From: Candidatus Terrybacteria bacterium RIFCSPHIGHO2_01_FULL_48_17
Lineage (GTDB): Bacteria; Patescibacteriota; Minisyncoccia; Terrybacterales; 2-01-FULL-58-14
Direction of reading: 5' to 3'
Assembly (NCBI GenBank): GCA_001822835.1
Contig: MHSS01000008.1
Location: 9,039-73,038, forward strand
DNA: 64,000 nucleotides
Below the pieces are notes generated by a model. The model was not told where the DNA came from. It searched no databases and was given only the letters and a program-made list of their open reading frames with translations. The position numbers were made by a program, and so were the translations under genes. Below, in pieces: positions 276-60,292 of this stretch. Position 1 is the stretch's first letter. Every line of letters begins with the position of its first letter.

Positions 276-1430
276 ATGGCATTAGTTTTATATCGTAAAT
301 ACCGTCCTAAAAGCTTTAATGAGCTAGTAGGGCAAGAACACATTGTAACCACCCTTACGAATGCCTTGGCGGCCAATCGGGTTGGGCATGCGTATCTTTT
401 TGCGGGACCGCGCGGCACTGGAAAAACGACCGTTGCGCGACTTTTGGCAAAAGCAGTGGTGTGCGAGGAATCAGGGGACAGGGGACAGGGTACGGGGTAC
501 AGGGGACAGGGGGCAGGATTTACCGAAGCATGTAATGTCTGTATCCATTGCGCGGCCATATTAGAAGGAAAGCATCCAGATTTGGTTGAAATTGATGCTG
601 CATCAAACCGCGGCATAGACGAGATCCGGCAGCTTAAAGAAAGCGTAAGGGTGGCACCCATGCAAGCCCGCATGAAAATATATATTATCGATGAGACACA
701 CATGCTCACCGAGCCGGCATTTAATGCATTACTTAAAACAATTGAAGAGCCGCCCGCGCATGCGCTTTTTATTTTGGCGACGACAGAAATTAATAAGGTT
801 CCGGCAACCATTCAGTCGCGCACCCAGCGATTTGATTTCAAAACCATACCATTGCCACAAATTGTTGGGCGGCTTGGGACAATCGTTGCTGCCGAACAGG
901 TCAAGGTTTCTTTAGAGGCGCTCGAACTTATTGCGCAAACGGCTGACGGTTCGATACGCGATGCCGAATCAATGCTTGAGCAGGTACTCGCATTTTCCCA
1001 AGGGGCAATTGGCGCACAAGAAACGATTGCTATTTTGGGGCTTGCCGATACCGCGCTTGTTCAAGCGATTGCAGAAGCACTTTCCAAAAAAGATTCCGGC
1101 AAAGCCATTGCCATTATTAACGACGCGGTTTCGCGCGGGGTCGACGCTCTCCATCTTACTGCGGGGCTTGCGTCGTATCTACGAGATATATTGCTTTTAT
1201 CTATTGATCCGAAACTTAAAGAATTGCTTTTGCGTCGCGCAAGCACAACCTATGTTGATACCGCACAGAAACACGCAAACGCTTTTTTGCCAGAGGAACT
1301 TACTACGATGATTCCTCAAATCATTGATGCGCTTGAATTGGCGAAGCGATCGCCGGTGCCGCAACTGCCGCTTGAGCTTGCGCTTATTACCATAATGCAA
1401 AAACATCCGGTGTCATTTAACGAAAAATAA
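276..1430 (+). CDS. dnaX: DNA polymerase III subunit gamma/tau (short gamma-only form, 384 aa)
   Basis: N-terminus YRPKSFNELVGQEHIVTTLTNA, Walker A GPRGTGKTT, Zn-module cysteines C..CNVCIHC, and the DnaX box/clamp-loader fold. A glycine-rich heptad insertion SGDRGQGTGYRGQGAG is encoded at 471-518. Confidence 0.9.
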   Translation: MALVLYRKYRPKSFNELVGQEHIVTTLTNALAANRVGHAYLFAGPRGTGKTTVARLLAKAVVCEESGDRGQGTGYRGQGAGFTEACNVCIHCAAILEGKHPDLVEIDAASNRGIDEIRQLKESVRVAPMQARMKIYIIDETHMLTEPAFNALLKTIEEPPAHALFILATTEINKVPATIQSRTQRFDFKTIPLPQIVGRLGTIVAAEQVKVSLEALELIAQTADGSIRDAESMLEQVLAFSQGAIGAQETIAILGLADTALVQAIAEALSKKDSGKAIAIINDAVSRGVDALHLTAGLASYLRDILLLSIDPKLKELLLRRASTTYVDTAQKHANAFLPEELTTMIPQIIDALELAKRSPVPQLPLELALITIMQKHPVSFNEK

Positions 1431-2707: not shown

Positions 2708-2744
2708 AAATTAGAGATTGAAGAGTAGGAATTAGGAATTATAT

Positions 2745-2815
2745 TGCGGGGTCGTCTAACGGTAGGACAGGGGCCTTTGAAGCCCTCAATGAAGGTTCGA
2801 CTCCTTCCCCCGCAG
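2745..2815 (+). tRNA. tRNA-Gln (anticodon UUG)
   Basis: Hand-folded cloverleaf. Acceptor TGCGGGG/CCCCGCA with U1-A72 (bacterial tRNA-Gln hallmark). D-stem GTCT/GGAC. Anticodon stem GGGGC/GCCCT with loop CTTTGAA. T-arm GAAGG-TTCGACT-CCTTC. Discriminator G. No encoded CCA. Confidence 0.8.
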
Positions 2816-2825
2816 TACGAAATTT

Positions 2826-2925
2826 TCCCGCGAGCACAGCCAAGTCCCGAGCTTGCCGAGGGGCGAGTGGTTGAAAATTTCAGTATCCCGAGCGACCGGA
2901 GGGAGTCCCGAGCATCGCGAGGGAG
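2826..2925 (+). repeat. GC-rich direct repeats: three copies of TCCCGAGC-N5-GAGGG(G/A) plus a degenerate fourth copy
   Basis: ttcccgcgagc (2826); tcccgagcttgccgagggg (2845); tcccgagcgaccggaggga (2886); tcccgagcatcgcgaggga (2906). They lie between tRNA-Gln and the GIY-YIG start; coordinates +/-2. Confidence 0.7.
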
Positions 2926-2931
2926 AGAGAA

Positions 2932-3210
2932 ATGACGAGGGACTACAATATGTGGTACGTCTATATTCTTGAATGTAACGACGGAAGTTTTTATACAGGT
3001 ACTACGGATAATATCCAACGAAGGTTTTTGGAACACAGGACCGGGCAAGGAGGAAAATACACACGGTCAAAAGGGGGCGCGAAGAGGTTGGTCTACACGG
3101 AAAAACATCAAACACGCAAAAGCGCTATGCAACGCGAAGCCGAGATAAAATCGTGGCGCAGAAAGAAAAAACTCAATCTAATCAAATTCAGTAATCCTAT
3201 TTTAAAATAA
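2932..3210 (+). CDS. GIY-YIG nuclease-superfamily small protein (UPF0213/YhbQ-like, 92 aa)
   Basis: Motifs YVYILECNDGSFYTGTTDNIQRRFLEH, KYTRSKG, KLVYTEKHQTRKSAMQREAEIKSWRRKKK match a GIY-YIG domain. The gene sits next to a tRNA, as is common for this family. Confidence 0.8.
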   Translation: MTRDYNMWYVYILECNDGSFYTGTTDNIQRRFLEHRTGQGGKYTRSKGGAKRLVYTEKHQTRKSAMQREAEIKSWRRKKKLNLIKFSNPILK

Positions 3211-3229
3211 CCAGACGGGTTAACAAATC

Positions 3230-3335
3230 GTGTCCGAGATGCGTCGGGGTACTAAAATAAGAACACCCCAGGAATCCTTACGGGGCACTGCGGAGAAATC
3301 TCGGAGACCAAGCCGGCCAGCCGCAATAACTCAGC
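3230..3335 (+). promoter_or_regulatory. candidate structured 5' leader upstream of the DUF2196 gene (nested and alternative GC-rich hairpins)
   Basis: Outer inverted repeat CCGAGAT (3234-3240) / ATCTCGG (3298-3304). Inside it, GGGGT...ACCCC and CCCC...GGGG form mutually exclusive stems sharing the CCCC tract. The region is GC-rich in an AT-rich genome. Confidence 0.35.
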
Positions 3336-5853: not shown

Positions 5854-7242
5854 ATGTCTTTCACGCCTCCCACATATCAATATGGGTTTTGGGTGAAAGA
5901 CCGTCCTTATTTTCGTTCTCCACATGGTCTTACAAAAAAAGCGGTTGAAGAATTATCTTTTCAAAAAAACGAACCTGAATGGATGCTCAAAAAACGTCTT
6001 GAGGCATTTGATATCTTTTTTAAAAAAGACATGCCTGAATGGGGCGCCGATCTTTCCGGAATCAGATTTCAAGATATTATATCCTATTTAAAGCCAACGG
6101 CAGAACAATCAAAGCGATGGGAAGACGTTCCGGAAGGTATTAAGTATACCTTTGATCGTCTTGGCATTCCCGAAGCTGAACGAAAATTTCTTGCAGGAGT
6201 TTCTGCACAATTTGATTCCGAGGTTGTATACCATAAGATAAAAAAGAAGTTGGAGCAACAAGGGGTTATCTTTTGCGATACCGACTCGGCCATACGCAAC
6301 TATCCCGAGTTTTTCCAAGAATATTTTGGGAAATTAATTCCCGCAGCCGACAATAAATTTGCCGCACTCAATACGGCCTTCTGGTCCGGAGGATCGTTTG
6401 TATATATTCCGCAGGGGATTCATGTTGATATTCCGTTACAGGCCTATTTCCGCATTAACGCCCGCAATATGGGGCAGTTTGAACGAACGCTTATTATCGC
6501 AGAGCCAGGGTCGTCGGTACATTATATTGAAGGATGCACGGCACCCGTTTACTCCCAAGATGCCTTGCACGCTGCCGTAGTGGAAATTGTTGTGAAAAAG
6601 AATGCCCGCGTGCAATATACTACCATTCAAAATTGGTCTAACGATGTGTACAATCTTGTAACCAAACGTGCTTTTGTAGAGGAAGAAGGAGAAATGTTGT
6701 GGATTGACGGGAATTTAGGAAGCAAGGTAACCATGAAATACCCTTCGGTATTTTTGAAGGGCCAAAAAGCCCGGGGAGAAATACTTTCGCTTGCCGTTGC
6801 GGGTCGCGCCCAGCACCAAGACGCAGGAGGTAAGGCCATACATATAGCCCCCGAAACCTCTTCGCTTATTACTTCAAAATCTGTAAGCCATACCGGAGGC
6901 AGAACCTCGTATCGCGGGCTTGTTCGTGTTACGCCAAATGCAAAACGAGCCCGCTCACATGTACAATGCGATGCGCTTATCCTCGATAAAGATTCTCGAT
7001 CGGATACGTATCCTACGACCCAAACGAATGAAGCATCGGCGCGGCTCTCGCATGAAGCGACCGTTACTAAGCTTTCGGATGAACAGCTTTTCTATCTTAA
7101 AGCCCGTGGTTTAAAAGAAGCCGATGCCCGTTCTATGATTGTGAATGGCTTTTTGGAGCCGGTCGTAAAAACATTACCACTGGAATATGCAATTGAATTA
7201 AACCGTCTCATTGAACTTCAAATGGAAGGGGCGGTGGGGTGA
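5854..7242 (+). CDS. sufB: Fe-S cluster assembly protein SufB
   Basis: Matches typical SufB motifs throughout ([28 protein letters not shown]...HYIEGCTAP...TYPTTQ). Start at internal ATG 5854. Confidence 0.9.
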
Positions 7243-7766
7243 GTTATATGGAGATAGTTATTCGCAGACCACAAACACAAAAATTAAAATATCAATGGAG
7301 AGGAAGGAAAGCGCACAATATAATAATTCGACTGGTGGCGGCAAAGGCCGGCGTTGAGCTTTCGGGAACCTTTATTGCCAAAAAAAATGATTCGTTACCC
7401 ATTTCCATATCTATTCACCACGAAGCACCCGAAACCAAAAGCCGGATTTTTGTGCGTGGAATAGCGCAAGACCGTAGCGTAGTTTCTTTCCGGGCAAATG
7501 CTCGGCTGAAAAAAGGTGCAAGAAAAGCGGATGCGGCCATTAACGCAAAAGCACTTTTGTTATCTCAAAATGCGCGTTGCGAACTGCAGCCGGATCTGGA
7601 AATTGACGAACAAGAAGTACGCGCAACCCATACAACCTTTGTGGGTCCGCTAGATGAAGAAGAAATTTTTTATTTACAGAGCAGAGGAGTGTCCGAAGAA
7701 AAAGCTAAGGAACTTTTGATCAAAGGGTTTCTCAACATAGCGCAGCACGTTAAGCAAGTTAAGTAA
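7239..7766 (+). CDS. sufD: short SufD-like protein (SufBD C-terminal beta-helix domain only, 175 aa)
   Basis: Overlaps sufB by 4 nt. Motifs [48 protein letters not shown] parallel the SufB/SufD C-terminus. Confidence 0.7.
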
Positions 7767-7771
7767 ATTAG

Positions 7772-7800
7772 GCGAGTTAAGCTTTACTCGCTTAACTCGC
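7772..7800 (+). repeat. perfect 11-bp hairpin GCGAGTTAAGC-tttactc-GCTTAACTCGC with flanking TAACTCGC/GTTAAG word repeats
   Basis: Located between the sufD stop (7766) and sufS ATG (7837). No U-run follows, so it is not a classical terminator. Confidence 0.65.
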
Positions 7801-7836
7801 TGTAACTCGCTTAACTTGCTTTATAAGCTCAAAGCC

Positions 7837-9081
7837 ATGTTTGATGTTTCAAAAATCAGAGAGGATTTCCCGATTCTAAAACGCTTAGTCCATGGCAAAC
7901 CATTGGCCTATCTTGACACTGCCGCTTCTGCACAAAAACCAAAACAAGTTATTGAAGCGCAAAGGGAATTTGAAGAAAATTCGTATGCAAATGTACACCG
8001 CGGAATCCATACGCTTTCGGAAAACGCAACAGCTCTTTTTGAAAAAGCTCGAAACACTATTGCTGATTTTCTGGGCAGCAACGATTCTGGAGAAATTGTT
8101 TTTGTACGCAATGCCACTGAAGGGATAAATCTTATTGCGTATTCTTGGGGAGAATCGAATATAGCCGCTGGGGATGAAATTTTAGTAACGCGCATGGAGC
8201 ATCATGCAAATTTTGTACCATGGCTAAGAATAACTCAAAAACAAAATGCCAAACTAGTGATTGCGGAACTCACATCGTCTGGAGAACTCGATCTTGAGGA
8301 TTTTTCCAGAAAACTCTCAAAAAAAACAAGAGTTATTGCCATAACCCTTATGTCCAATGTGTTGGGTACGATCAACCCAATTGAAAATATTGTTGAAATG
8401 GTTAAACGCAACTATGCCACAAATCTCGACTCTTTTCCTCTAATCGTAATTGATGCCGCTCAAGCCGTTCCACATTTCAAAGTCAATGTAAAAACTCTTG
8501 AATGCGACGCTCTTGTTTTCTCCGGCCATAAACTGTATGGCCCTACGGGAATAGGAGTGTTGTGGATGAAAAAGAAGTTGCTAGATGACATGCCCCCATT
8601 TCTTGTGGGCGGACAAATGATACGGACTGTCTACAACGATCGGGTGGAATATAATGATGTTCCCTGGAAATTTGAGGCGGGAACACCGGATATCACGGGC
8701 GCAATAGGATTGGCTACTGCGATACAATATTTAAAAACTCTTGGTATCGATGCGATTTTTGAACACGAAAAGGGAATAACTGCATATGCTTTAGAAAAAA
8801 TGAGGTCGCTCAAGGACCTAACGCTTTTTGGACCACCAAATCCCGAAAAGCGCGGAGGACTTCTCTCGTTTGTACACAAGACCTTGCATGCGCATGATAT
8901 TGCAAGCTTGCTTGACGAAGAAGGAATCGCTATTCGTGCCGGCCATCATTGCACCATGCCTCTTCATGCCAAATTAGAAGTTGCCGCTACTGCTCGCGCA
9001 AGTTTTGGTATCTATACTACCAAAGAAGAGGTGGAAATTTTTTATAACGTCCTTAAACATATCATCAAACGTTTCGCGTAG
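7837..9081 (+). CDS. sufS: cysteine desulfurase SufS (class V aminotransferase)
   Basis: PLP-lysine context SGHKLYGPTGIGVLW, active-site Cys loop AIRAGHHCTMPLH, N-terminus FDVSKIREDFPIL. Confidence 0.9.
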   Translation: MFDVSKIREDFPILKRLVHGKPLAYLDTAASAQKPKQVIEAQREFEENSYANVHRGIHTLSENATALFEKARNTIADFLGSNDSGEIVFVRNATEGINLIAYSWGESNIAAGDEILVTRMEHHANFVPWLRITQKQNAKLVIAELTSSGELDLEDFSRKLSKKTRVIAITLMSNVLGTINPIENIVEMVKRNYATNLDSFPLIVIDAAQAVPHFKVNVKTLECDALVFSGHKLYGPTGIGVLWMKKKLLDDMPPFLVGGQMIRTVYNDRVEYNDVPWKFEAGTPDITGAIGLATAIQYLKTLGIDAIFEHEKGITAYALEKMRSLKDLTLFGPPNPEKRGGLLSFVHKTLHAHDIASLLDEEGIAIRAGHHCTMPLHAKLEVAATARASFGIYTTKEEVEIFYNVLKHIIKRFA

Positions 9082-9107: not shown

Positions 9108-9518
9108 ATGTCTTCTCTTTATCGCGAAGAAATTCTTGCGCATGCACGACACCCTCAACATAGGGGAACATTGGAACCTGCGGATATTATTGCATCGCTT
9201 ACAAATACCACGTGTGGCGATGAAATAACCATCTATATCAAAACGAAAAGCCCGTCGACTAATGAGCAAATAATCGATGAAGTTAGATTTGAAGGAGAGG
9301 GTTGTATCATAAGCCAAGCTGCAGCAGATCTTTTTTCAGAATATATAACTGGGAAAACTCTCAAAAACGTTTCAACAATGACTATTGAAGGAATGCTTTC
9401 GTTGTTCAATGCTTCGATCACAGAAAGCAGAAAGCCGTGCGCCCTTTTAGCATATGAAGCATTGAAACGAAAAACGCAGCGCGTAGAATACAACAACCAA
9501 CAAGAATCCTCTCAATAA
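9108..9518 (+). CDS. sufU: SUF Fe-S scaffold SufU (NifU/IscU-like)
   Basis: NPRHRGTLE-like N-terminus HARHPQHRGTLEPADI, then CGDEITIY and GEGCIISQAAAD cysteines. Confidence 0.85.
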   Translation: MSSLYREEILAHARHPQHRGTLEPADIIASLTNTTCGDEITIYIKTKSPSTNEQIIDEVRFEGEGCIISQAAADLFSEYITGKTLKNVSTMTIEGMLSLFNASITESRKPCALLAYEALKRKTQRVEYNNQQESSQ

Positions 9519-9844: not shown

Positions 9845-12187
9845 ATGAAAAAATTCCTTATTTTTCCTATGCCGCAACAAATTCTTATAGGACTTGTCTT
9901 TCTGTTGCCTCTTTTATGGGTTCCTTTCACGGCAGATGTATTGGAATTCAATAAACAGGCGATTTTATTGGTCGCAGCCCCTCTTTTGTTGTTTTTATGG
10001 CTTCTTAAGAGCGTACGCGAAAAAGAAATTTCTTTTTCCTTAACTGCTCCGATTCTTGCAAGTATTGTTTTTGTAGTTATTTTAGGCGGTGCAGCGCTTT
10101 TATCCCAAGACCGTTGGCGAAGCATAATCGGTTTTGGGGCTGAATCCCACGAGAGTTTTGCCACAATATTGGCTGTGGCCATTATCGCGTTTAGCGCCGT
10201 TACAATACTTAAAGAAAAAAGCATTCTTTTGAAAATTTTAAGTTCTTTTTCTGTTTCAGCCGGCCTTGTTGCAATCATTGCTCTTGTCGCAGCTTTTGGA
10301 GGATTACAAGGTCTTTCCTTTCCGCCTGGTTTTAATACAATTGGTACACTCAGCGGCTTTACTGTTTTCCTTGCTGCTGCCTTTTTGGTTTCCTTTGGAC
10401 TTATACATATAACTCGAGGGGTTATTCGTGCCATATTATTGCTGGTATTGATTACGCAATTTATAGCATTATTTATTTTAGGAACTGCGATTGGATGGCT
10501 GCTTGTTGCGGTCGGTGCTGCGGTTTATTTTGTGACGCTTTTGCGCAATAATCCCGATGTGGTGCCATCTATACCGTGGTGGTTTAGTCCTCCGTTGATT
10601 GTGGGTCTTGCATTGGCATTCATGATTCTGCAGCCCCGATCCATTGTCCGTATCACGAATATTCCTCCTGAAATTTCTCCCAGTAACTCAGCAAGTGCTT
10701 ATATTGCCGCTCAAACCCTAAAAGAACGGCCGCTTTTAGGGTCAGGTCCTGGAACATGGATATACGATTATTCGAAATTTCGGCGTCCACAACCAATCAA
10801 TAGCACCTCTTTCTGGAATCTTCGTTTCGCCGAGGGGAGCTCAAAAATACTAAGCATGCTTGCGACTCATGGGATGCTCGGATGGCTCTCGTGGATAGGA
10901 GTGTTGGGTGTCGTATTGCTAGGTATTATAAGGACGCTACGACGTGCCACGCCTTCATTTTCGCCTGCCGCAAGCGGCGCTTTAACGCTATGGATAACTC
11001 TTGGTGTTGCGCAATTTGTTACCACCTCGAATATCACGCTTGAATTTCTCTTCTGGCTTGCAACCGCTGCAGTAATTGCCCATATCGATTCCTCAGTATT
11101 GCATTTCAGTTTACCGAAGGCCTCGGCACGCGCAGCTGTAGTAGGTATGGGGGCATCATTTGTTGCAGTATTACTCTTGGTCTCGTTATATGGCGTGGGA
11201 ACTCGGTATGTAGCTGCCATACAATATACTCGAGGAATTAGGGATATCCAAAACAATGATATTGAGGGGGCAATCGCCGCCATTTCCCGGTCGGCAACCT
11301 TCGATTCGCAAAATGATCTTTATTGGAGATCTTTATCCGATGTGTGGCTATTGCGTCTCGCACAACATATTCAGCAATCTCAACAAAAAAGCGACATAAA
11401 TCAAGAAATCGAAACGGCAGTAAATTCTATGCTTCAAGCAGCAACTCGCGCAACTATAATTGCGCCCCACAATGTTGCCAACTGGACACAACTTGCCGTG
11501 GTGCGCACAAATCTTATCCCGCTTGGGTCGCCAGCAGCTATACCGCAGATAGTAGAGCCGGCCATTGCATCATGGCAAAAAGCACAAGAGCTTGAGCCAT
11601 CAAACCCATTTTTACCAACCCAACGGGCAATTGTATACCTAAATGCCGCAGATATTGTACAAAACGTGGGTGAGCAAGCGAAGAGCCAACGAGAACAATA
11701 TTTAACACAAGCAGCTGCAGCACTCGAAGAAGCATTGAAACTCAAGGCAGATTATGCCCCCGCGCATTTTCAGCGAGCGCTTCTTGCTATGCGCCAAGGC
11801 AAGACCCAGGAAGCCATTTCAGACCTTGAGATTGCCCAAAAATTACAGCCGCAGGATATAACTATAGCTGCACAATTAGGGGTGCTGTATTTTAATGCGG
11901 GACGACTGGCGGGGGCCGAAAGCTTACTTGCGGCAGTACTTAAAGCAGCGCAGGCCACTGGACAGGATCACGCAAATGCACGCTATTTCTTAGGCCTTAT
12001 TGCCGATCAGCAAGGAGAAAAGGAAGTTGCGAAGCAACATTTTGAACGTATTCTTGAACTCAATCCAGGCAATGTCTTGATAGAAAAAATCCTTACTAAT
12101 CTTCGAGATCAAAAACCGGCATTAGAGGGTCTTGAAAGCGCACCGGGCCTTGTTCCTGCTGTGGCAGTTTCCGAGGACGAATCATAA
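9845..12187 (+). CDS. polytopic membrane protein with an O-antigen-ligase/Wzy-like core and C-terminal TPR repeats (780 aa)
   Basis: About 10-12 TM helices in the first 430 aa and a large periplasmic loop. The soluble C-terminal region carries TPR-like repeats (LKADYAPAHFQRALLAMRQGKTQEAISDLEIAQKLQP...). Confidence 0.6.
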   Translation: MKKFLIFPMPQQILIGLVFLLPLLWVPFTADVLEFNKQAILLVAAPLLLFLWLLKSVREKEISFSLTAPILASIVFVVILGGAALLSQDRWRSIIGFGAESHESFATILAVAIIAFSAVTILKEKSILLKILSSFSVSAGLVAIIALVAAFGGLQGLSFPPGFNTIGTLSGFTVFLAAAFLVSFGLIHITRGVIRAILLLVLITQFIALFILGTAIGWLLVAVGAAVYFVTLLRNNPDVVPSIPWWFSPPLIVGLALAFMILQPRSIVRITNIPPEISPSNSASAYIAAQTLKERPLLGSGPGTWIYDYSKFRRPQPINSTSFWNLRFAEGSSKILSMLATHGMLGWLSWIGVLGVVLLGIIRTLRRATPSFSPAASGALTLWITLGVAQFVTTSNITLEFLFWLATAAVIAHIDSSVLHFSLPKASARAAVVGMGASFVAVLLLVSLYGVGTRYVAAIQYTRGIRDIQNNDIEGAIAAISRSATFDSQNDLYWRSLSDVWLLRLAQHIQQSQQKSDINQEIETAVNSMLQAATRATIIAPHNVANWTQLAVVRTNLIPLGSPAAIPQIVEPAIASWQKAQELEPSNPFLPTQRAIVYLNAADIVQNVGEQAKSQREQYLTQAAAALEEALKLKADYAPAHFQRALLAMRQGKTQEAISDLEIAQKLQPQDITIAAQLGVLYFNAGRLAGAESLLAAVLKAAQATGQDHANARYFLGLIADQQGEKEVAKQHFERILELNPGNVLIEKILTNLRDQKPALEGLESAPGLVPAVAVSEDES

Positions 12188-19302: not shown

Positions 19303-19806
19303 ATGAAAATCTATCTAGCTGCTGATCATAACGGTTTCGCCCTTAAAGAAAAAATTAAAAAATGGCTTAATGCATGGGAATATGAATATGAAGACATTGG
19401 TCCGTTCGTATTCGACCCCAAAGACGATTACCCGGATTTCATAATTCCCGCGGCTCGAGCGGTAGCACAAGATCCAGATACCAGACGCGCGATTATTCTG
19501 GGTTTTAGCGGACAAGCAGAAGCAATGACTGCCAACCGCATGAAAAACGTTCGAGCTTCTGTATACTACGGTGAGCCTTCCGCATTATCGGATGTGGGAG
19601 GAAAGCGTACGGACAAACCAAGGGATTTGCTTGTGCTCACAAGAGAAGATAACGATTCAAACATACTCTCGCTTGGTGCCGGATTTCTTTCAGAAAAACA
19701 GGTAAAAGAAGCAATTACGCGATGGCTGAAAGCGCCCTTTACGGGACAAGAACGCCATATCCGGCGCATCAACAAAATAGATCAAGGAATAGGGAATAGG
19801 GAATAG
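19303..19806 (+). CDS. rpiB: ribose-5-phosphate isomerase B (LacAB_rpiB family)
   Basis: MKIYLAADHNGFALKEKI N-terminus. The C-terminal tail QGIGNRE* is encoded by a GGGAATA tandem repeat. Confidence 0.8.
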   Translation: MKIYLAADHNGFALKEKIKKWLNAWEYEYEDIGPFVFDPKDDYPDFIIPAARAVAQDPDTRRAIILGFSGQAEAMTANRMKNVRASVYYGEPSALSDVGGKRTDKPRDLLVLTREDNDSNILSLGAGFLSEKQVKEAITRWLKAPFTGQERHIRRINKIDQGIGNRE

Positions 19807-19844
19807 GGAACACAGCAATTTTTCTTATACCTCATACCTTATAC
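19786..19844 (+). repeat. two adjacent heptamer tandem arrays: (GGGAATA)x3-4 at 19786-19812 and (CTYATAC)x3 at 19824-19844
   Basis: ggaatagggaatagggaatagggaaca overlaps the rpiB stop codon. cttatacctcataccttatac lies just before the rpe start. Confidence 0.8.
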
Positions 19845-19853
19845 TTCAGGCCT

Positions 19854-21550: not shown

Positions 21551-22852
21551 ATGGCTTTGGCTATTCAAAAACTTGCCCAAATCTTAAGAACTCGAGAAGA
21601 AATACTTGAAACATTTGGTATCGCCATGAACAAATTGGTCGGAATAAAGAATGTTTTTGAAGAAATAGCAGAAGAGAACGATTCGCAAGTACGTAGAGCA
21701 CTAGGAGACCTTGGTTTTTCAAAAGATAGTTCGGCCGAAGATGTGTATCATGCGCTTATTACCAAATTGCGACAAACCGATGAAAAAATATCGCAATTTC
21801 TTAATACGCCCACATGCGCGACGCCCTCCGGTTGCAAAACCGTAATCGACTTAGCAAAAACGATCAAAGGAACAACCACTGGTTATTTTTTAAAAAAGGA
21901 AATCGCAGAAACGTTACTACGAAAGAATCCTCCCCAAAATCTCCTAAAGGAACTTGGGGAAAAAACAATCGACGAGCTTTTGCAAGAAAGCTCTGTTTCT
22001 GAAATTTTTCCGGCAATCCGTTTTGCTGAAGACCCCCGCTGGCTCAATGATGTATTTTTTCGACCATACGCATTTTTGACCCCGGATGATTTTGAAGAGC
22101 GCGAGGTATCGATCACCATACTCCCAGAACGTTGGAGAGACATTGGGAAAAAATTTGTCGGAAAAAAACTACACCATATCAGTCATCTTAAAGAATTAGG
22201 CATCATTTTTGTTTTGCCGATTTCTGAAGAAAATCATGGCGGTACTCCCGCAGGAACAACGCTGGAGATATTAACGCTTCTTCTCCATTATCTAAACGAA
22301 GTGCCCTTTTACTCACGAATTTTCAAAAGATTTGCAAAAGATCCAAAGCATTTTGCGTCCCATCTTACCTCTGCGCTCCGTGGTGATGTGCGCGATCATA
22401 TCCCCGACGGGGAACGAGCAGAGAGGCGCTTTCTTATTGTGCAAAGATATCTTGCGAAAGATGATCCATCTGATCCGCGGCTTTTTATTCCACATCTTAA
22501 TCCCGAAGCGGTTCATTGGTCATATGTTATGCGCTCACTTACTGAATTTGGAAAATCGCATCCTGAGCTTGGTTTTGGGTTTTGGGATGGCCTGGACCAC
22601 ATTGGAGATTTTTTCCCTCTTTCAGCAGCTAAAGAGGAAAATATGATGCGGGGAGTTTCAGAAGAAATTTTAGTGCCATTCAATTTTATTGATACACTCA
22701 TTTCACACAATCGTTACTCATCCGTGTTTACAAAATATCTCTACCATCAACAAGAAGCGCTTTGGAACCGCCTATTTAGCGGGTGGCTTGGTAAAGCAAG
22801 AATGGAAGGGATGGTCGAAGATAATTTAGAAAAAGGGTATATAGAAATATAA
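21551..22852 (+). CDS. hypothetical protein (433 aa) embedded in a sugar-phosphate operon
   Basis: Long ORF in the same orientation and tightly packed between the PfkB kinase and fba. No motif recognised. Confidence 0.55.
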   Translation: MALAIQKLAQILRTREEILETFGIAMNKLVGIKNVFEEIAEENDSQVRRALGDLGFSKDSSAEDVYHALITKLRQTDEKISQFLNTPTCATPSGCKTVIDLAKTIKGTTTGYFLKKEIAETLLRKNPPQNLLKELGEKTIDELLQESSVSEIFPAIRFAEDPRWLNDVFFRPYAFLTPDDFEEREVSITILPERWRDIGKKFVGKKLHHISHLKELGIIFVLPISEENHGGTPAGTTLEILTLLLHYLNEVPFYSRIFKRFAKDPKHFASHLTSALRGDVRDHIPDGERAERRFLIVQRYLAKDDPSDPRLFIPHLNPEAVHWSYVMRSLTEFGKSHPELGFGFWDGLDHIGDFFPLSAAKEENMMRGVSEEILVPFNFIDTLISHNRYSSVFTKYLYHQQEALWNRLFSGWLGKARMEGMVEDNLEKGYIEI

Positions 22853-22875: not shown

Positions 22876-23742
22876 ATGCACGTAAAAGAATTATTCGCAA
22901 AAGCACATCACGAAAAATTTGCTATCGGTGCATTCAACGTCGCCAATATTGAAACAATGAGAGCAATAGTTGAGGCAGCCGCAGAACTTGCTTCGCCTGT
23001 TCTTATAGAATCGTCTCCCGGAGAAACAAAATGGATGGGGGCACGTAATGTTATTTCGGTTGCGCGAAATTTCTCTTCTGAATATGGTATTCCTATTTTT
23101 GTTAATCTTGACCACGCAGAGACGTTTGATGAGTGCATGGTTGGCATCGAAGCAGGATATGATCTGATCCATTTTGACGGATCGGCTCTTTCTTATAAAG
23201 AGAATATGGAAATTACTAAAAAAGTTGTGTCGGAGGCACACGCAAAAGATCTAATGGTAGAAGCAGAAATTGATCGTATGGCCAGAAAATCTTCCGAGGT
23301 TTACAAAGAACAAATAACTATAGAAGAATTAAAAAAGACATTCTCCGATCCGCAAAAAGTTCGGGAATTTGTTCAAGCAACGAATGTCGATACCATGGCA
23401 ACGCTTTTTGGAAATATCCATGGTATTTTCCCGACACAACCACCACTTGATATTGGGCTTTTACAAAAAATTTGCGAGGTGATACCTGATACCTTCTTAT
23501 CATTACATGGTGGTTCAGGCATTCCAGATTCCCAAGTACAGCAAGCTATAAAAATTGGTGGTGTAGTAAAAGTAAATATTAATACAGAAATGCGATTGGC
23601 CTTTCGACAAACGCTCGAAAAGACATTGCAGGAAAACACCAAAGAGCTTGCGATGTATAAGGTGTTGCCGCCAGTGATTGATGCGGTAAAAGGAGTTGTC
23701 AGAAAAAAAATTAAAATATTTGGGTCGGCAAACAAAATATAG
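22876..23742 (+). CDS. fba: class II fructose-bisphosphate aldolase
   Basis: AFNVANIETMRAIVEAAAELASPVLIESSPGE, NLDHAETFDEC, HGGSGIP motifs. Confidence 0.85.
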   Translation: MHVKELFAKAHHEKFAIGAFNVANIETMRAIVEAAAELASPVLIESSPGETKWMGARNVISVARNFSSEYGIPIFVNLDHAETFDECMVGIEAGYDLIHFDGSALSYKENMEITKKVVSEAHAKDLMVEAEIDRMARKSSEVYKEQITIEELKKTFSDPQKVREFVQATNVDTMATLFGNIHGIFPTQPPLDIGLLQKICEVIPDTFLSLHGGSGIPDSQVQQAIKIGGVVKVNINTEMRLAFRQTLEKTLQENTKELAMYKVLPPVIDAVKGVVRKKIKIFGSANKI

Positions 23743-29309: not shown

Positions 29310-30017
29310 ATGACTAAGGACATAGACAACATCGTACAAGAGCTTGTAAAAGCAGGGGCGCATATCGGGCATCGACCGTCATTTAGGCATCCTCGCATGA
29401 AACCCTTTATTTTTGGTGTGCGCGGCGCAGTTGAGCTTATCGATGTTCGAAAAACAGCAGAAGCGCTCCAAAAGGCAAAAGAGTTTGTTGAAGAGCTTGC
29501 GGCAAATCATAAGATTATTTTATTTGTGGGAACAAAACCCCAAATGCAAGAATTGACTAAAAATATTGCACGTGCCTGTGATATGCCTTATGTGATCAGA
29601 CGATGGCTGGGAGGAACTATTACTAATTTTGCGGTTGTCGCCAAACGCTTAGAAGCATTTCGGGGTTTGGAAAAATCGATAGCGAATCAGCAAGAGATGG
29701 AAAAATATACCAAAGCAGAACAGCTACGACTTCGCAGAAAATACGAACATCTGGAAGAAGAAATTGGTGGATTGAAAGAATTGCGAAAGCCACCAGATGC
29801 GCTTATCCTTGCTTCTCTTCATTCAGAGGCATTACCTGCAAAAGAAGCGCGTATGAGAAATATTCCCACAATCGCCATTGTAGATTCAAATACCGATCCA
29901 TCGCTTGTTGATTATCCTATTCCGGGAAACGATGACGCGCTTTCCGCACTTAACTATATATTCTCCCGATTGGCAGAAGGAATTACGGAAGGCCAAAAGA
30001 AACAAAAAACAAAATAA
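29310..30017 (+). CDS. rpsB: 30S ribosomal protein S2
   Basis: LVKAGAHIGHRPSFRHPRMKPFIFGVRGAVELIDVRKT N-terminal signature. Start at internal ATG 29310. Confidence 0.9.
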   Translation: MTKDIDNIVQELVKAGAHIGHRPSFRHPRMKPFIFGVRGAVELIDVRKTAEALQKAKEFVEELAANHKIILFVGTKPQMQELTKNIARACDMPYVIRRWLGGTITNFAVVAKRLEAFRGLEKSIANQQEMEKYTKAEQLRLRRKYEHLEEEIGGLKELRKPPDALILASLHSEALPAKEARMRNIPTIAIVDSNTDPSLVDYPIPGNDDALSALNYIFSRLAEGITEGQKKQKTK

Positions 30018-34623: not shown

Positions 34624-35736
34624 ATGCGTATTCTCTTTACGGGGGGGGGGACTGGAGGTCACATCTTTCCCATTCTCGCTATTTTCCGTTCGCTTAAAAA
34701 TCGATTGCCTAAAGAAACTGAATACTATTTTGTTGGACCAAAAACAGATGGTTTAGAAACGCTTACGCAAGAAGGAATTCGCGTATATGCCATCATCGCT
34801 GGAAAGTTGCCAAGGTATATTACAGCTCGAATTGTTGTAGAACTTATAAAAATCCCCACAGGTATGGTTTTGGCAATTATAGCATTATGGCGTACCATGC
34901 CCGACATTGTTTTTGGCAAGGGTGGTTATGGAACTGTACCAATAGTACTTGCTGCCCGCTTATTTGGTATTCCGGTCATAATCCATGAATCGGATGCTAT
35001 CCCAGGGGTCGCAACAAGAATCGCTGCGCGTTTTGCGAGTGCGATTGCGATTTCGTTTACAGATACCCTTGCGTGGTTTCCGAAAGCCCGCATTACCGGC
35101 AATCCAGTTCGCGTTACGATCAAGCAAGGATCCCGTCCCCAAGCTCAAGCCCGATGGCACATAGCGCTTGGTGAAGTTATTTTGGTTCTTGGGGGAAGTC
35201 AAGGTGCCTGGCAATTAAATCAGACGATATTGGAGGCAGCGCCAACGTTGCTAGAAAAAACAGAAATCATCCTTCAATGCGGCGCAAAAACACATCATAC
35301 TACCCTTGAGCTTGCACGACGCATCTTGCAGAAAACGCCGCACCTTGCCACCTTACTTCATATCGACAAATTTCTTGACGAAAAAGAACTTGCAGATGCA
35401 TATGCTATTTCTTCATTGGTTGTCTCTCGCGCAGGATCGGGTACATTATACGAAAATGCGCTTGCGGCAAAACCAATGCTCCTTATACCCCTTGAAAGTG
35501 CAGCAGCGAATCACCAAAAGGTCAATGCAGCTATTTTTGCAAAAGCAGGAGGGGCGGAAATCATAACGCAAGAGAATCTTGCACCTCATCTTTTTTCAAA
35601 AAAAATCCTTACGTTATTGCAAAACAGACCAAAACTTCACCAAATGTCCCAAATTGTACAACATCTTGCCCTCCCAAATGCTGCTGATGACGTGGCTTCT
35701 ATGATCATTGAAAACATTCCGAAAGCACTATCATGA
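34624..35736 (+). CDS. murG: undecaprenyldiphospho-muramoylpentapeptide beta-N-acetylglucosaminyltransferase
   Basis: ILFTGGGTGGHIFPILAI G-loop and GT-B C-terminal domain. A G10 homopolymer lies at 34641-34650 inside the GGGTGG codons. Confidence 0.9.
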   Translation: MRILFTGGGTGGHIFPILAIFRSLKNRLPKETEYYFVGPKTDGLETLTQEGIRVYAIIAGKLPRYITARIVVELIKIPTGMVLAIIALWRTMPDIVFGKGGYGTVPIVLAARLFGIPVIIHESDAIPGVATRIAARFASAIAISFTDTLAWFPKARITGNPVRVTIKQGSRPQAQARWHIALGEVILVLGGSQGAWQLNQTILEAAPTLLEKTEIILQCGAKTHHTTLELARRILQKTPHLATLLHIDKFLDEKELADAYAISSLVVSRAGSGTLYENALAAKPMLLIPLESAAANHQKVNAAIFAKAGGAEIITQENLAPHLFSKKILTLLQNRPKLHQMSQIVQHLALPNAADDVASMIIENIPKALS

Positions 35737-39797: not shown

Positions 39798-39824
39798 GAC
39801 CTTCTTTAAACAGAAGGTTTTTTA
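39798..39824. terminator. bidirectional rho-independent terminator ACCTTCT-ttaaac-AGAAGGT flanked by an A-run and a T-run
   Basis: Lies between convergent rpmA (+) and pyrG (-); the pyrG stop falls in the loop. Confidence 0.7.
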
Positions 39825-41464
39825 TGAGCGGCTTCAATAAAAGCCAAAAAGAGAGGATGTGGATTTAAAGGACGGGAGCGAAGCTCTGGATGAAATTGGG
39901 TTCCGATAAAAAATGGGTGGTTTTTAAGTTCAATGATTTCAACAAGCTGCTTATCAGGATTGATACCAGAACATATAAGTCCTAACCGTTCGAGTTTCGA
40001 TTTAAATTCATTATTAAATTCGTAACGATGTCGATGGCGTTCATTCGCGATTACTGCGATGTTGGTTCGTTTTTTTCGGCTATACGCATGCTGAGCGAGG
40101 GTATGCGGAATAACTTTACAAGTATAATTTCCCAAGCGCATCGAACCGCCCAATATTTTCTCGTGTATTTTAGTAACTTGTTCCGGCATAATATCAATTA
40201 CAGGAAATTTTGTTTGCGGATTGATTTCAGTTGTATGAGCTTGTCGCATATTTGCGACGTTGCGAGCAAACTCTACTACGGCTAATTGCATACCAAAGCA
40301 AAGCCCAAGAAAAGGAATGTATTTTGTCCTTAAATAATGGATCGCGCCAATTTTTCCTTCCGTTCCTCGTGCGCCAAAACCACCGGGAACAATAATTCCA
40401 TCGAATTGTTTTAATTCTTTGATTTTTTGCGGAAATTGTTCATATGCTTCAGAATCCAACCATTGGATTTTTGGTGTTAATCCCCTCTCCCATGCCGCAT
40501 GTTTTATTGCTTCAATCACGGATATATAAACATCTTCGAGCACAAAAGCACCGCTGGCAAAATACTTGCCAAGAATCCCGATAGAAACTGTTTTTGTGCT
40601 CTTTTGGGAACGATGGATAAATTGCATCCAGGGCTTTTCGTAAACAGCTTTTGGCTTACGGATGGGAATGCGCATCTTCTTACATAATCTTTTCGCAAAT
40701 TCTTCTCGTTCAAATTGCAGAGGAACCTCATAGACCGAAGAAAGATTCGGCGCCGATATTACGTTTTCCTCAGCCACATTACAAAATATTGCAAGTTTCC
40801 TCTTCCGAGGCACATCTATGGGTTGGGCAGCCCTCCCGACAATAAAATCGGGCTGAAGGCCAGCTGCTTGAAGGGCATGAACTGCCTGCTGAGTTGGTTT
40901 TGTTTTCATTTCACGCAAAGCATGCGGGATAGGAAGATAGGAAACCAATACAACGGCGACATCTTGCGGGGATTCGTGCCGCATAAATCGAGCCGCCTCC
41001 AAATAAAGGATATTCTGATATTCCCCTGCCGTTCCTCCGATTTCTACTAAAAGAATATCTGCACGCGCTTGACGTGCAGCCAACTTGAGGCGTCGAATAA
41101 CTTCATTGGGAATATCTGGTACAACTTCAACGCATCGACCATTATACTCCAGGCCTCGTTCTTTACGTATAACTTCCTGAAAAATTTGCCCAGTGGTGAT
41201 AGAATTAATACCCGGAAGATCCACTCCTAAAAACCGTTCATACGTTCCAATATCCTGATCGCATTCCATTCCGTCTGAAGTGACGAATACCTCCCCATGC
41301 TCTACTGGATTCATTGTGCCAGCATCCACATTAACATAGGGATCGATTTTAACGGCAGAAACAGCATATCCGCGATTATATAAAATGCGTGCCAAAGAAG
41401 CGGCCGTCACGCCTTTCCCGATACCAGACATAACGCCGCCCACAATAAATATAAATCTGGTCAT
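39806..41464 (-). CDS. pyrG: CTP synthase
   Basis: N-terminal synthetase IFIVGGVMSGIGKG and GATase domain GLCFGMQLAVVEFARN (catalytic Cys); 552 aa. Confidence 0.9.
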   Translation of the reverse strand: MTRFIFIVGGVMSGIGKGVTAASLARILYNRGYAVSAVKIDPYVNVDAGTMNPVEHGEVFVTSDGMECDQDIGTYERFLGVDLPGINSITTGQIFQEVIRKERGLEYNGRCVEVVPDIPNEVIRRLKLAARQARADILLVEIGGTAGEYQNILYLEAARFMRHESPQDVAVVLVSYLPIPHALREMKTKPTQQAVHALQAAGLQPDFIVGRAAQPIDVPRKRKLAIFCNVAEENVISAPNLSSVYEVPLQFEREEFAKRLCKKMRIPIRKPKAVYEKPWMQFIHRSQKSTKTVSIGILGKYFASGAFVLEDVYISVIEAIKHAAWERGLTPKIQWLDSEAYEQFPQKIKELKQFDGIIVPGGFGARGTEGKIGAIHYLRTKYIPFLGLCFGMQLAVVEFARNVANMRQAHTTEINPQTKFPVIDIMPEQVTKIHEKILGGSMRLGNYTCKVIPHTLAQHAYSRKKRTNIAVIANERHRHRYEFNNEFKSKLERLGLICSGINPDKQLVEIIELKNHPFFIGTQFHPELRSRPLNPHPLFLAFIEAAHKKPSV

Positions 41465-47318: not shown

Positions 47319-48268
47319 TATTCTTTAATTTCTCCTACCTTATGCAGCCATGCATCCCGTATGCCAAGCATAACGCCAGCAGCAAATGGGCGTTTTTCGG
47401 GCAAAAACAGCCATTTAACGGCATGCCATGCGGCTCTCGGTACACTCCACAGATAAGCAAGAATAATCTTTCCAAACGGGGCGTTGCGCAAACATAAAAA
47501 AAGACCGCCCCTCACGTGATAGCGCACATATTTCACCGATCGTTCGGGCGTGCTTGCCGCACCCTTATGCCACACCTTTGCGGCAGGAATAACGGCACAC
47601 AACCAACCTGCTTTTTTCGCACGCAGCGACCATTCGGCATCCTCGTAATATAAAAAATAGTCTTCTGGCATAAGATGGATTTCCTCAAGAATTTGTCGTC
47701 GGATCAACAAACAGCCACCGGTTGCGTATCCGGTCTCCACATACTCATGCCCATTCAACTGTCCAGAATCCATCTCGTTGACGAAGCGATGTTTTCCTCT
47801 CGTGTATAACCAATTGATATCAGCACCCGCAAACCAAAACTGATTTGTTTTTTCCCCATTGTCTTTCATTCGATATATTTTAGGATTTGCCAAGCCAATA
47901 GTATGATGCTTTTCCATCACGTCAAGCATCTGTTTTAAGAACCCGGGGTCCACGATAGTATCGTTATTCAATAAAAGGACATAGCCAGCACCTTTGTGGT
48001 AGGCAATTTTAATGCCTATATTATTGCCGCCGGCAAAACCGAGGTTCTCCTTGTTGGCAATCAGGGTATAGGGTACAGGGTACAGATCCTTATTTTTATC
48101 GATAAATTCTTGGATTTTCGTTACGGACTCATCTTCTGATCCGTTATCAACGACAAGTACTTCAAAAACGGGCTCTTTGACAACCAAAAGCGACTCGAGG
48201 CATCGCAAGGTGTCTTTCCATCCATTCCAATTCAAGACAATTATGGTGGTTTTAGTCGGTTTTTCCAT
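47318..48268 (-). CDS. GT2-family glycosyltransferase (GT-A)
   Basis: TIIVLNWNGWKDTLRCLESL...VVDNGSEDES (DxD) N-terminal domain. Contains an in-frame GGGTAYA x3 repeat encoding YPVPYTL. Confidence 0.85.
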   Translation of the reverse strand: MEKPTKTTIIVLNWNGWKDTLRCLESLLVVKEPVFEVLVVDNGSEDESVTKIQEFIDKNKDLYPVPYTLIANKENLGFAGGNNIGIKIAYHKGAGYVLLLNNDTIVDPGFLKQMLDVMEKHHTIGLANPKIYRMKDNGEKTNQFWFAGADINWLYTRGKHRFVNEMDSGQLNGHEYVETGYATGGCLLIRRQILEEIHLMPEDYFLYYEDAEWSLRAKKAGWLCAVIPAAKVWHKGAASTPERSVKYVRYHVRGGLFLCLRNAPFGKIILAYLWSVPRAAWHAVKWLFLPEKRPFAAGVMLGIRDAWLHKVGEIKE

Positions 48269-55853: not shown

Positions 55854-56420
55854 ATGGCACAAACTGATATCGTACCCTATACAAACCGCCGTATTCGACG
55901 GAAAGGCGAAGCGCTTCCAAAATCCACAGATGTTGCCGTGCTTGTTGAACAAATGAGAAAAGCCATGAAAATACATGATGGTATTGGTATTGCGGCACCG
56001 CAAATTGGCGAGGCGGTACGAGTTTTTATAATAGAAAAAAAGCTTTTCCCCGGCGCCGATCTCCCATCAGACGTGTTTATCAACCCCAAAATACTAAGAA
56101 AGGGATTTAAACGAGAGATCTCGGAAGAAGGATGTCTTTCGGTGCCCAACGTATTCGGACAGGTTTCGCGAAGCCTAAAAATTACCATTGAGGCCTTCGA
56201 TCAAAATTGGAAAAGGTTTCGTCTATCCACGCAAGAACTTCTTGCGCGAGTCCTGCAACACGAACTTGACCATCTTGATGGAACGCTTTTTATTGATAAA
56301 GCAGACGCCGATACGCTACATGAGGTGGTATATGACAAAGAAGGAAAACCGACATTGCGTCCTTGGACGCAAAAATCCAAAATCCAAAATCCAAATGATA
56401 AAACAAATTCTAATTTCTAA
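55854..56420 (+). CDS. def: peptide deformylase
   Basis: GIGIAAPQIG, EGCLSVP, HELDHLDG motifs. The C-terminal tail KSKIQNPND is encoded by an AAAATCC x3 repeat. Confidence 0.9.
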   Translation: MAQTDIVPYTNRRIRRKGEALPKSTDVAVLVEQMRKAMKIHDGIGIAAPQIGEAVRVFIIEKKLFPGADLPSDVFINPKILRKGFKREISEEGCLSVPNVFGQVSRSLKITIEAFDQNWKRFRLSTQELLARVLQHELDHLDGTLFIDKADADTLHEVVYDKEGKPTLRPWTQKSKIQNPNDKTNSNF

Positions 56421-56474
56421 AACGGACGGGTGTTAATAAATTTTTGATTTTGATATTGTTTTGGATTTTGAGCT

Positions 56475-59758: not shown

Positions 59759-60268
59759 TTGTCAAACGAAAAACCAATTTCGGATCTTATTCCCTGCGAA
59801 TGTTTCAATGGCCTTGCAAACCAAGAGGTTGATTTCATTTGCGAATTCGGGCCGTGGGTATTGATGCTGAATCACCAGCAAAACTTTCTTGGGAGAACGT
59901 TGGCGATACTAAAACGTCATGCAGTAGATTTTGGGGAAATTACTCCCCACGAGCTTATACCATTGCTTTCAGCATACCGCCATTGGAAAGCAGCGATAGA
60001 TAAGGCATTCAAGCCAGATAAATATAATCTTGCACTGTTAGGGAACGAGGAATATTTACACGGCGGGCATGTACATTTCCATTTTGTGCCGCGCTATCGT
60101 AGGCCCGTCACGTTTGCCAGCGAATCCTTCCAGCATGATACGCCCGAAACCACTACCCAAAACTACTCACGCGTCGACCGAAAACAGATTTATCCCATAA
60201 AAATCAGAAGAAAAATTAAACACAAAATCCTGCGGTCTTGGCCAAAACATCTTGCAATAAAGAAATAA
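59759..60268 (+). CDS. HIT-family (histidine triad) hydrolase
   Basis: Histidine triad GGHVHFHFVPRY; 169 aa. Confidence 0.75.
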   Translation: MSNEKPISDLIPCECFNGLANQEVDFICEFGPWVLMLNHQQNFLGRTLAILKRHAVDFGEITPHELIPLLSAYRHWKAAIDKAFKPDKYNLALLGNEEYLHGGHVHFHFVPRYRRPVTFASESFQHDTPETTTQNYSRVDRKQIYPIKIRRKIKHKILRSWPKHLAIKK

Positions 60269-60292
60269 TCCGCCCATTCGGCGGATTTTTTA
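60268..60292. terminator. bidirectional rho-independent terminator ATCCGCC-cattc-GGCGGAT + T6 between convergent HIT and nth
   Basis: Canonical GC stem and T-run directly at the HIT stop. Confidence 0.75.

Follow-up and report, generated by a model that had tools for sequence, protein, structure and literature searches.

The dnaX gene on a 64,000-nucleotide (nt) stretch of Candidatus Terrybacteria DNA (contig MHSS01000008.1, positions 9,039 to 73,038; this whole stretch is hereafter referred to as the window) contains a tandem array of the heptamer GGGGACA, and similar arrays lie in other housekeeping genes and in spacers of the same window. The locus raises the question of how repeats with a 7-nt unit come to stand inside genes that are read in triplets, and whether they form a system of their own. 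A preliminary description had treated them as a dispersed family of in-frame G-quadruplex (G4) motifs; its observation is confirmed, and its interpretation is partly supported. We observed an excess of heptamer arrays over chance, whole-unit polymorphism, steps of three and six units in dnaX, placement in loops and gene tails, and recurrence at orthologous sites. The arrays are members of a class of heptanucleotide repeats that is known in bacteria and is poorly understood, and constitute neither a dedicated G4 system nor a new system. They are simple sequence repeats (SSRs) that probably arise by slippage with a preferred 7-nt register and are then filtered by selection.

Arrays were detected with Tandem Repeats Finder (TRF), a score of at least 40 defining a strong array. 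As a null model we used 100 dinucleotide-preserving shuffles of the window, and as a background 1.15 Mb of dnaX loci from other bacteria (39–52% DnaX relatives, from all phyla, among the matches listed). The window contains 13 period-7 arrays, whereas the shuffles contain 1.28 on average and none of the 100 reaches 13, an excess of about ten times chance. The top six scores in the window (64, 50, 48, 43, 42 and 41) compare with a shuffle maximum of 41, and three period-14 arrays compare with 0.25 in the shuffles. Exact heptamer runs of at least three copies occur three times, against 0.22 per 64 kb in the background loci (Poisson P = 0.0015). The density of strong period-7 arrays per 10 kb is 0.12 in non-CPR loci (CPR, candidate phyla radiation), 0.46 in other CPR loci, 0.94 in the window, 1.21 in a sister species with about 70% protein identity (contigs L003, L115 and L118) and 4.95 in a more distant syntenic CPR contig (L120); the density in the window is about eight times that of other bacterial loci. 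Period 7 is also commoner than periods 6, 8 and 9 in the background loci. The arrays thus exceed both the shuffles and other bacterial loci, which disposes of a random density of heptamers. Moreover, at least 20 contigs that originate from separate samples and assemblers (ENA MEGAHIT, ANAN16 scaffolds, JGI and Logan) match the window DNA at 99.5–100% identity, with every array present, so that an assembly artefact is excluded.

The host is a Parcubacteria-like CPR bacterium of groundwater or aquifer-type metagenomes, and the closest named relatives of its DnaX, DinB and MurC proteins belong to Candidatus Terrybacteria (47–55% identity). Its genome is compact (92% coding). The window has a G+C content of 44% and is not AT-rich, as had been assumed; nor are G-runs otherwise rare, GGGG occurring 187 times against 142 expected. 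A scan of the window with Rfam detected three tRNAs only. Mazel et al. reportedly described, in 1990, a cyanobacterial heptamer, STRR1, that is a member of the G-rich heptamer SSR class. A cyanobacterial origin, for which the STRR-like units might have spoken, was rejected: the HIP1 octamer (GCGATCGC) occurs once in the window, and all protein matches are to Patescibacteria/Parcubacteria.

The array with the highest score lies in dnaX.
472–517, + strand: dnaX heptamer array, TRF period 7, 6.6 copies of GGGGACA, score 64, G-rich on the sense strand.
276–1430, + strand: dnaX host gene, encoding a 384-residue, gamma-length clamp-loader subunit with the Pfam domains DNA_pol3_delta2, DNAX_ATPase_lid and DNA_pol3_gamma3; its Protein Data Bank matches are E. 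coli gamma/tau.

The preliminary description had read this array at 474–517, and TRF recovers it. Its letters there are GGGGACA GGGGACA GGGTAC GGGGTACA GGGGACA GGGGGCA GG, and the array encodes amino acids (aa) 66–81 of DnaX (SGDRGQGTGYRGQGAG), with the repeat peptide GDRGQGT/GYRGQGA. We aligned DnaX with 27 orthologues and E. coli gamma. The insert, previously placed between the Walker A region and the zinc-module cysteines, is located within the zinc module itself, between the first cysteine (C63) and the remaining three (C86, C89 and C92). C63 and C86 are separated by 22 aa here, by 15 aa in L002, a DnaX relative of 73% identity, and by 8–9 aa in insert-free orthologues (P0005 and P0006) and in E. 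coli; the stretch between the equivalents of C64 and C73 is 14 residues longer than in E. coli gamma. The dnaX insert therefore comprises 14 residues, or 42 nt, which is exactly six units. The dnaX gene of L002 also uses the GGGGACA unit and has exactly three units fewer than the window (+3 versus +6 units), and other DnaX orthologues have unrelated inserts in this zinc-module loop. In an AlphaFold2 model of DnaX (mean predicted local distance difference test score (pLDDT), 84.8), residues 68–80 are coil with a pLDDT below 50, and the insert is predicted to form a disordered loop of the zinc module.

Two further features of DnaX stand apart from the heptamer array. At 384 aa the protein is short, as are its CPR orthologues (about 365 aa), and is thus without the C-terminal tau domains, which in E. 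coli bind DnaB and Pol III alpha. In the sister species, the zinc-module loop of DnaX contains another in-frame insert (L003, ~2580–2660) of about 78 nt, which is GC-rich, encodes ...SGKPASAGEPLTARASAEAASEGGLP... and folds into a pair of stable hairpins (−55.8 kcal/mol, z = −4.1). Peptides like this insert occur in P0004, P0010, P0035 and P0066, some close DnaX relatives having them and others not (P0004 versus P0005), and the insert is reminiscent of palindromic elements of the Rickettsia RPE type, which enter genes in frame.

The near-identical arrays that had been reported elsewhere in the window (GT2, murC, priA, rpiB, def, dinB and two intergenic sites) were all found by TRF. The host genes according to Pfam are dnaX, murC, priA, def, dinB, rpiB and a GT2 glycosyltransferase gene, in agreement with the names first given to them.
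19786–19810, + strand: rpiB tail array, GGAATAG × 3.6 (unit GGGAATA), with the TAG stop codon (19804–19806) within the third unit.
19827–19848, + strand: intergenic array between rpiB and rpe, CTYATAC × 3 (TRF), partly complementary to the rpiB tail array.
48062–48085, − strand: GT2 glycosyltransferase array (host by Pfam), sense CTGTACC × 3.4 (unit GGGTACA on the + strand), encoding LYPVPYT.
52325–52356, − strand: murC array, sense CAGGGAC/CAAGGAC, about 4.6 copies, encoding QGPRTRDKGSG in a variable loop.
55644–55673, + strand: priA array, TTATCCC × 3 + ATCTCCCCC, whose four sense-strand C-tracts constitute a G4 motif on the complementary strand.
56372–56395, + strand: def C-terminal tail array, AAAATCC × 3.4, encoding KSKIQNP, 25 nt before the stop codon.
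59276–59307, − strand: dinB 14-mer × 2.3, sense AATCCCA ATGACCA (two alternating heptamers), encoding NPNDQTPMTK.
60287–60317, no strand assigned: intergenic 14-mer × 2.2, minus strand GGGAATA + GAAAGTA, after a terminator-like hairpin (60267–60287) and overlapping the 3′ end of an nth-like gene.
2726–2741, no strand assigned: minor two-copy heptamer, TAGGAAT × 2.3, TRF score 30–32, upstream of the tRNA gene at 2745–2815.
9421–9435, 22571–22586, 23480–23494, 30000–30014 and 55109–55123, no strand assigned: five similar two-copy arrays, TRF score 30–32.

The minor two-copy arrays together exceed the shuffle expectation. Where alignments were made (dnaX, murC and dinB), the internal arrays proved to be insertions relative to other orthologues or solved homologues: MurC has 9 extra aa at its array compared with E. 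coli MurC (2f00), and DinB has 8 compared with the DinB structure 7yll, both inserts falling in loops that are variable among CPR orthologues. DinB (58569–59711, − strand) contains a second lineage-specific insert, of about ten residues (AVRAAPRGELRPT), at aa 41–52, which has no counterpart in any of the 16 aligned orthologues and does not consist of heptamer repeats. For GT2, priA, def and rpiB, the comparison covers the sister species, or none; a concatenated PriA-C, Def and RpiB query returned no close relatives.

Pairwise comparison of near-clonal assemblies over about 190 kb identified two indels only. One of them is in the rpiB tail, where contig L102 has exactly one GGAATAG unit fewer and is otherwise 100% identical over 4.9 kb, as expected from the slippage that had been suggested for these loci. 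This loss removes the in-array stop codon, so that RpiB is extended by 34 aa into the start of rpe. It is the one length variant at the rpiB tail among eight assemblies. The six arrays at 48–60 kb exhibit no length variation, each being spanned by 3–10 assemblies (10 for dinB and 3 for GT2). The other indel is a 22-nt deletion at 11287–11308 (ANAN16 scaffold, L089/L097) that is unrelated to the arrays; it lies in the gene for a 780-aa TPR protein (9845–12187), which it splits into open reading frames (ORFs) of 510 aa and 252 aa in that contig.

In the sister species, period-7 arrays occur at four of the six orthologous genic sites, where chance gives 1.8% per site (P = 1.5 × 10−6). The murC site shares its unit (ACAGGGA × 2.3 + GGGATCGGGGATCAGG), and the def site retains a decayed orthologous array. 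At the priA site, CTACTCA × 2.9 occupies the same codons as TTATCCC × 3, with the same length and register and hence no length change, and at the dinB site GGGAATA × 5.4 begins at the same codon as the CCCAATGACCAAA 14-mer of the window. The GT2 site holds a different, non-repetitive sequence of another length. The MurC loop of L120 contains two arrays (AAAGTTC × 4.9 and AAAACAA × 3.7), and the DinB and MurC loops of other CPR bacteria contain KIQNSK-type peptides, the translation of AAAATYC repeats. Arrays persist at the same sites across species-level divergence while their unit sequence changes; these loops may either hold old arrays with unit turnover or be the few spots that tolerate new arrays.

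The position of the arrays relative to genes is not random. Spacers and regions within 25 nt of a stop codon make up about 11% of the window sequence and contain 6 of 15 arrays (P = 0.004). In the lineage, 12 of 18 strong arrays are internal to long ORFs, compared with 53 of 178 (about 30%) at other loci (Fisher P = 0.003); in the window alone, the share is four of six. This high genic share is the sole respect in which the arrays go beyond the published pattern, and it probably reflects a compact CPR genome combined with weak purifying selection.

Since 7 and 3 share no common factor, the reading frame survives only net changes of three units (21 nt, 7 aa), and an array yields one and the same cyclic 7-residue peptide in any frame (GGGGACA translates to GDRGQGT, and AAAATCC to KIQNPKS). 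A sense-strand array must therefore be free of stop codons or end its gene. GGGAATA contains TAG, which accounts both for the position of the rpiB stop codon within its array and for the GGGAACA variant that the dinB array of the sister species shows at the would-be TAG. Preservation of the frame by every array in a coding sequence, as had been noted, is survivorship in essential genes and not a property of the repeats, and the sole natural length variant, that of rpiB, shifts the frame.

Slippage in a 7-nt register followed by selection is the explanation that we favour for these observations, with reasonable rather than high confidence. The arrays would arise by strand slippage during replication, in a lineage that, like many bacteria, would favour the 7-nt register. 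Selection then keeps them in spacers and gene tails, where single-unit changes are tolerated (as in the one-unit variation of the rpiB tail), and in disordered or variable surface loops, where only net three-unit changes are allowed; at the sites so kept, units would turn over by mutation and by homogenization through further slippage. Several points weigh against this explanation. Each genome has its own cloud of units (GGGNAYA here, AAAGTTC/AAAACAA in L120 and GGGAGTA/GGGAACA/GGGACTA in contigs picked by GGGAATA), which generic slippage leaves unexplained. The predominance of 7-nt units over units of 6 or 9 nt even within genes, where that length is costly, is likewise left unexplained; the polymerase-footprint idea behind the 7-nt register is only a hypothesis. 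Ongoing slippage is seen at one array only, the internal arrays being invariant in all assemblies that span them (3–10 each). Finally, the orthologous dinB arrays have unrelated units, and shared ancestry is inseparable there from independent birth in a permissive loop.

The unit clouds, lying beyond generic slippage, keep sequence-specific seeding as a minority reading. Here slippage would be preceded by templated heptamer addition at breaks or stalled forks, by ectopic copying of arrays or by an element that duplicates 7-bp targets and leaves them as footprints. The units of the strong arrays are indeed related, and the portrayal of the arrays as a dispersed, sequence-related and non-random set holds: a G3 tract is present in five of the six strong units (GGGGACA, GGGTACA, GGGACCA, GGGATAA and GGGAATA) compared with 13% of window heptamers (P = 2 × 10−4), and 9 of the 15 pairs of strong units differ by at most two mismatches against 2.8 expected (P = 0.002), with a consensus of about GGGNAYA. 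Single GGGNANA copies outside the arrays are at expectation (157 versus 157.3), and abundant single-copy seeds were therefore rejected as the source of the arrays. Exact (GGGAATA)3 was found in at least 120 public metagenome contigs; 80 of these (490 kb, 32–72% G+C) contain 141 further heptamer arrays, 44% of which have units that differ from GGGAATA at no more than two positions (for example, GGGAGTA, GGGAACA and GGGACTA). Judged by these sequences, genome-specific clouds of related heptamer units are widespread, matching the published GGGAATC of Xanthomonas, GGGGACT/GGGGATT of Nostoc and TAACTGA of Beggiatoaceae.

Seeding, if true, would explain why each genome has its own unit cloud, including the 44% share of GGGAATA relatives, why single motif copies are not over-represented, and why the same loops carry different arrays in different species. 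We nevertheless consider it unlikely. No candidate enzyme or template was identified, and no obvious common sequence was noticed beside the arrays, although their flanks were not directly compared. The array ends merge into their flanks by microhomology (CAGG at both ends of the dnaX array), as slippage predicts, and the units of one genome range widely, from GGGGACA to AAAATCC.

A bolder proposal adds a function to the seeding: a sequence-specific activity encoded by the genome would add (from a template) or copy the 7-nt units, and inverted array pairs at gene junctions (def/fmt, rpiB/rpe and several in L120) would act as functional hairpins, which could, for example, couple the translation of adjacent genes. 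We regard this as quite unlikely. One such pair involves the def tail array.
56460–56483, + strand: inverted partner of the def tail array, an inverted repeat of 24 nt (79% complementary) in the spacer just upstream of fmt.

The fmt start lies at about position 56490 of the window, as judged from the gene calls of contig L105. The def pair is present in the minimum free energy (MFE) fold, with an energy that is not significant in this genome (z = −0.77); the def/fmt arrangement is conserved in the sister species (L118, 6840–6970, − strand), where it folds significantly (z = −2.55). The rpiB tail array likewise pairs with the CTYATAC array in the MFE fold, not significantly (z = −0.96). Stable hairpins at rpiB/rpe and def/fmt in this genome were thus rejected, their energies being no better than those of shuffles. 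In L120, two of the three inverted array pairs tested fold significantly (z = −3.7 and −3.1), and the third does not (z = −1.5). A def/fmt hairpin near the fmt start could possibly be melted by ribosomes finishing def, giving translational coupling.

A hairpin of a different repeat lies at 7744–7821, between a SUFBD-core gene (7239–7766) and a cysteine-desulfurase-like aminotransferase gene (7816–9081). Two adjacent 9-mer arrays, AGCAAGTTA × 4.3 and GCTTAACTC × 4.4, are mutual reverse complements and form a long hairpin (−38 kcal/mol, z = −6.4), and the arrangement is also present in the sister species (L003, 11813–11912). Built from tandem repeats, this hairpin may serve as a terminator or as a processing element.

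The G-rich units led to the proposal that the arrays are functional G4 elements in DNA or mRNA, selected to pause replication, transcription or translation of their hosts. Canonical G4 motifs (four G3+ tracts with N1–7 loops) occur at 474–517 (+ strand) and 55648–55673 (− strand) only, a count of two that is not significantly above the 0.5 expected (P about 0.085). With six G3+ tracts on its sense strand, the dnaX array reaches the maximum G4Hunter score of the window (2.0–2.2); the priA array has four tracts, on the strand opposite to the sense strand. The GT2, murC and rpiB arrays have three tracts each; the def, dinB and intergenic arrays have fewer than four, and the AAAATCC and CTYATAC arrays have no G-tracts. 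The earlier assignment of canonical G4 motifs thus stands for dnaX, a strong predicted candidate, stands marginally for priA, and falls for the other arrays, which have at most three tracts.

Selection for such a function would fit the G3 tract in five of the six strong units, the retention of the GGGGACA unit in dnaX of the 73% relative and the folding in vitro of similar units, (GGGGACT)4 and (GGGAATC)4, into G4 structures (PMC4692102). The G-rich strand, however, is the sense strand in dnaX, murC and rpiB and the antisense strand in GT2, priA, def and dinB, and in an informal tally it was not consistently associated with the direction of transcription or with the replication direction deduced from GC skew. 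At orthologous sites of the sister species the units include CTACTCA and CAAAGCC, the arrays of L120 are A/T-rich, and the insert in another dnaX relative is unrelated. In the study of Rehm et al., no regulatory function emerged for the G-rich heptamer class (PMC4692102). Since the units of the sister species and L120 are often not G-rich, G4 formation is not the organizing principle, and was rejected as the common denominator of the arrays; their G4 potential reads, from the sequences compared, as a side-effect of the GGGNAYA unit family. That the arrays are selected as G4 elements is as doubtful as the seeded hairpins.

A role as contingency (phase-variation) loci, at which genes would be switched on and off as units are gained or lost, had also been suggested and is very unlikely. 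One natural one-unit variant alters the RpiB C terminus, and 7-bp repeats drive phase variation at the hmw1A promoter of Haemophilus influenzae (PMC8262952). Contingency loci switch non-essential genes, typically those for surface or restriction-modification functions. The hosts here are essential housekeeping genes (dnaX, murC, priA and def), in which a frameshift would be lethal, the internal arrays are identical in every spanning assembly, and the sole variable array lies at a gene end and does not switch rpiB off. Still less credible is selection at the protein level alone for flexible Gly/Pro/Gln-rich linkers, with the DNA periodicity as a by-product: the inserts do lie in loops predicted to be disordered, and tandem repeats of Borgs create disordered regions (PMC9879509), but peptide selection would not be expected to give an exact period of 7 nt rather than a multiple of three or one unit read in all three frames, the Borg ORF repeats are divisible by three and the window arrays are not, and spacers and the antisense strand carry arrays as well.

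Slippage filtered by selection, the reading that we prefer, can be set against several known repeats. The G-rich heptamer SSRs of Xanthomonas (GGGAATC) and Nostoc (GGGGACT/GGGGATT) (Rehm et al. 2015, PMC4692102) likewise have a 7-nt unit with a G3–4 tract and an A-rich remainder, and the five G3-tract units of the strong arrays are of the GGGNATC/GGGGAYT type, as one-base variants rather than identical copies, GGGAATA and GGGGACA of the window each being one base off a published unit. In both cases the arrays are dispersed over the genome, typically in 3–6 copies, are enriched at gene ends, where some overlap stop codons, and vary in length and sequence among related species at conserved positions. 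The published repeats are, however, strongly under-represented in coding sequence, whereas four of six strong arrays here (12 of 18 in the lineage) are genic; their hosts are free-living bacteria with large genomes, unlike the small-genome CPR host, and the four-unit preference is not seen here, where non-G units are also included.

Among long SSRs with units of 5–11 nt in prokaryotes, heptanucleotides are the most abundant according to Mrazek, Guo and Shah (2007), as cited in PMC4679880 and PMC4692102, and the same articles relay the proposal of Mrazek that they arise by slippage with a 7-nt polymerase footprint. As far as these accounts describe such repeats, the window arrays resemble them in their head-to-tail 7-nt units beyond chance (13 versus 1.28), with period 7 also leading in the background loci, and in their whole-unit length changes between strains or species (the rpiB tail in L102, dnaX in L002). 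They differ in that the long SSRs so described occur mainly in large genomes of high G+C content, with 3n units in genes, rather than as 7-nt genic units in a streamlined genome of 44% G+C.

The TAACTGA direct repeats of marine Beggiatoaceae and some cyanobacteria (MacGregor 2015, PMC4679880) are likewise a genome-specific heptamer in many short arrays (2–6 copies), with no correlation with single-copy number; they consist of one exact unit mostly located just upstream of start codons, whereas the window has a cloud of units, many of them genic. Borg repeats (PMC9879509) similarly add lineage-specific, fast-evolving disordered segments through tandem repetition of DNA, but their ORF units are divisible by three, whereas with units of 7 nt (or 14 nt) only triple-unit steps remain in frame. 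The heptanucleotide loci of H. influenzae hmw1A and hmw2A (PMC8262952) also gain and lose whole units by slippage; they lie in surface-adhesin promoters and vary within populations, whereas the arrays described here lie in housekeeping genes, with the internal ones fixed. Within the collection of papers searched, none connects Patescibacteria to heptanucleotide repeats.

The lineage offers a natural experiment, in which 7-nt arrays stand in essential genes, single-unit slips are lethal and triple-unit steps survive, so that mutation pressure and selection can be read separately. The arrays also provide a concrete route by which CPR proteins can gain lineage-specific disordered loop inserts, in steps of seven residues. 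They are a hazard for gene calling, as a one-unit variant drops the rpiB stop codon and the ORF runs into rpe, and they could serve as strain markers in aquifer metagenomes.

Other repeats and tracts of the window were noted in passing. A G10 homopolymer (34640–34649) forms codons 6–9 of murG (ORF 34624–35736, Glyco_transf_28), where it encodes the conserved glycine motif GGGTGGH, and thereby adds another site prone to slippage to an essential gene; a WecG-family gene contains a run of C8 (52933–52940). Downstream of the tRNA gene at 2745–2815, a long spacer (2708–3335) contains a GC-rich 20-nt tandem repeat at 2886–2925 (TCCCGAGCACCGCGAGGGAG). In one identical contig, a 92-aa GIY-YIG ORF is called there (L090, 6996–7274, corresponding to about 2932–3210 of the window), and in the sister species a related 33-nt GC-rich repeat adjoins a GIY-YIG gene (L003, 5367–5435). 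At ~39800–40000 the cumulative GC skew reaches its maximum, with genes mostly on the + strand to the left and mostly on the − strand to the right, in convergent orientation, and by its sequence this looks like a replication-terminus-like region.

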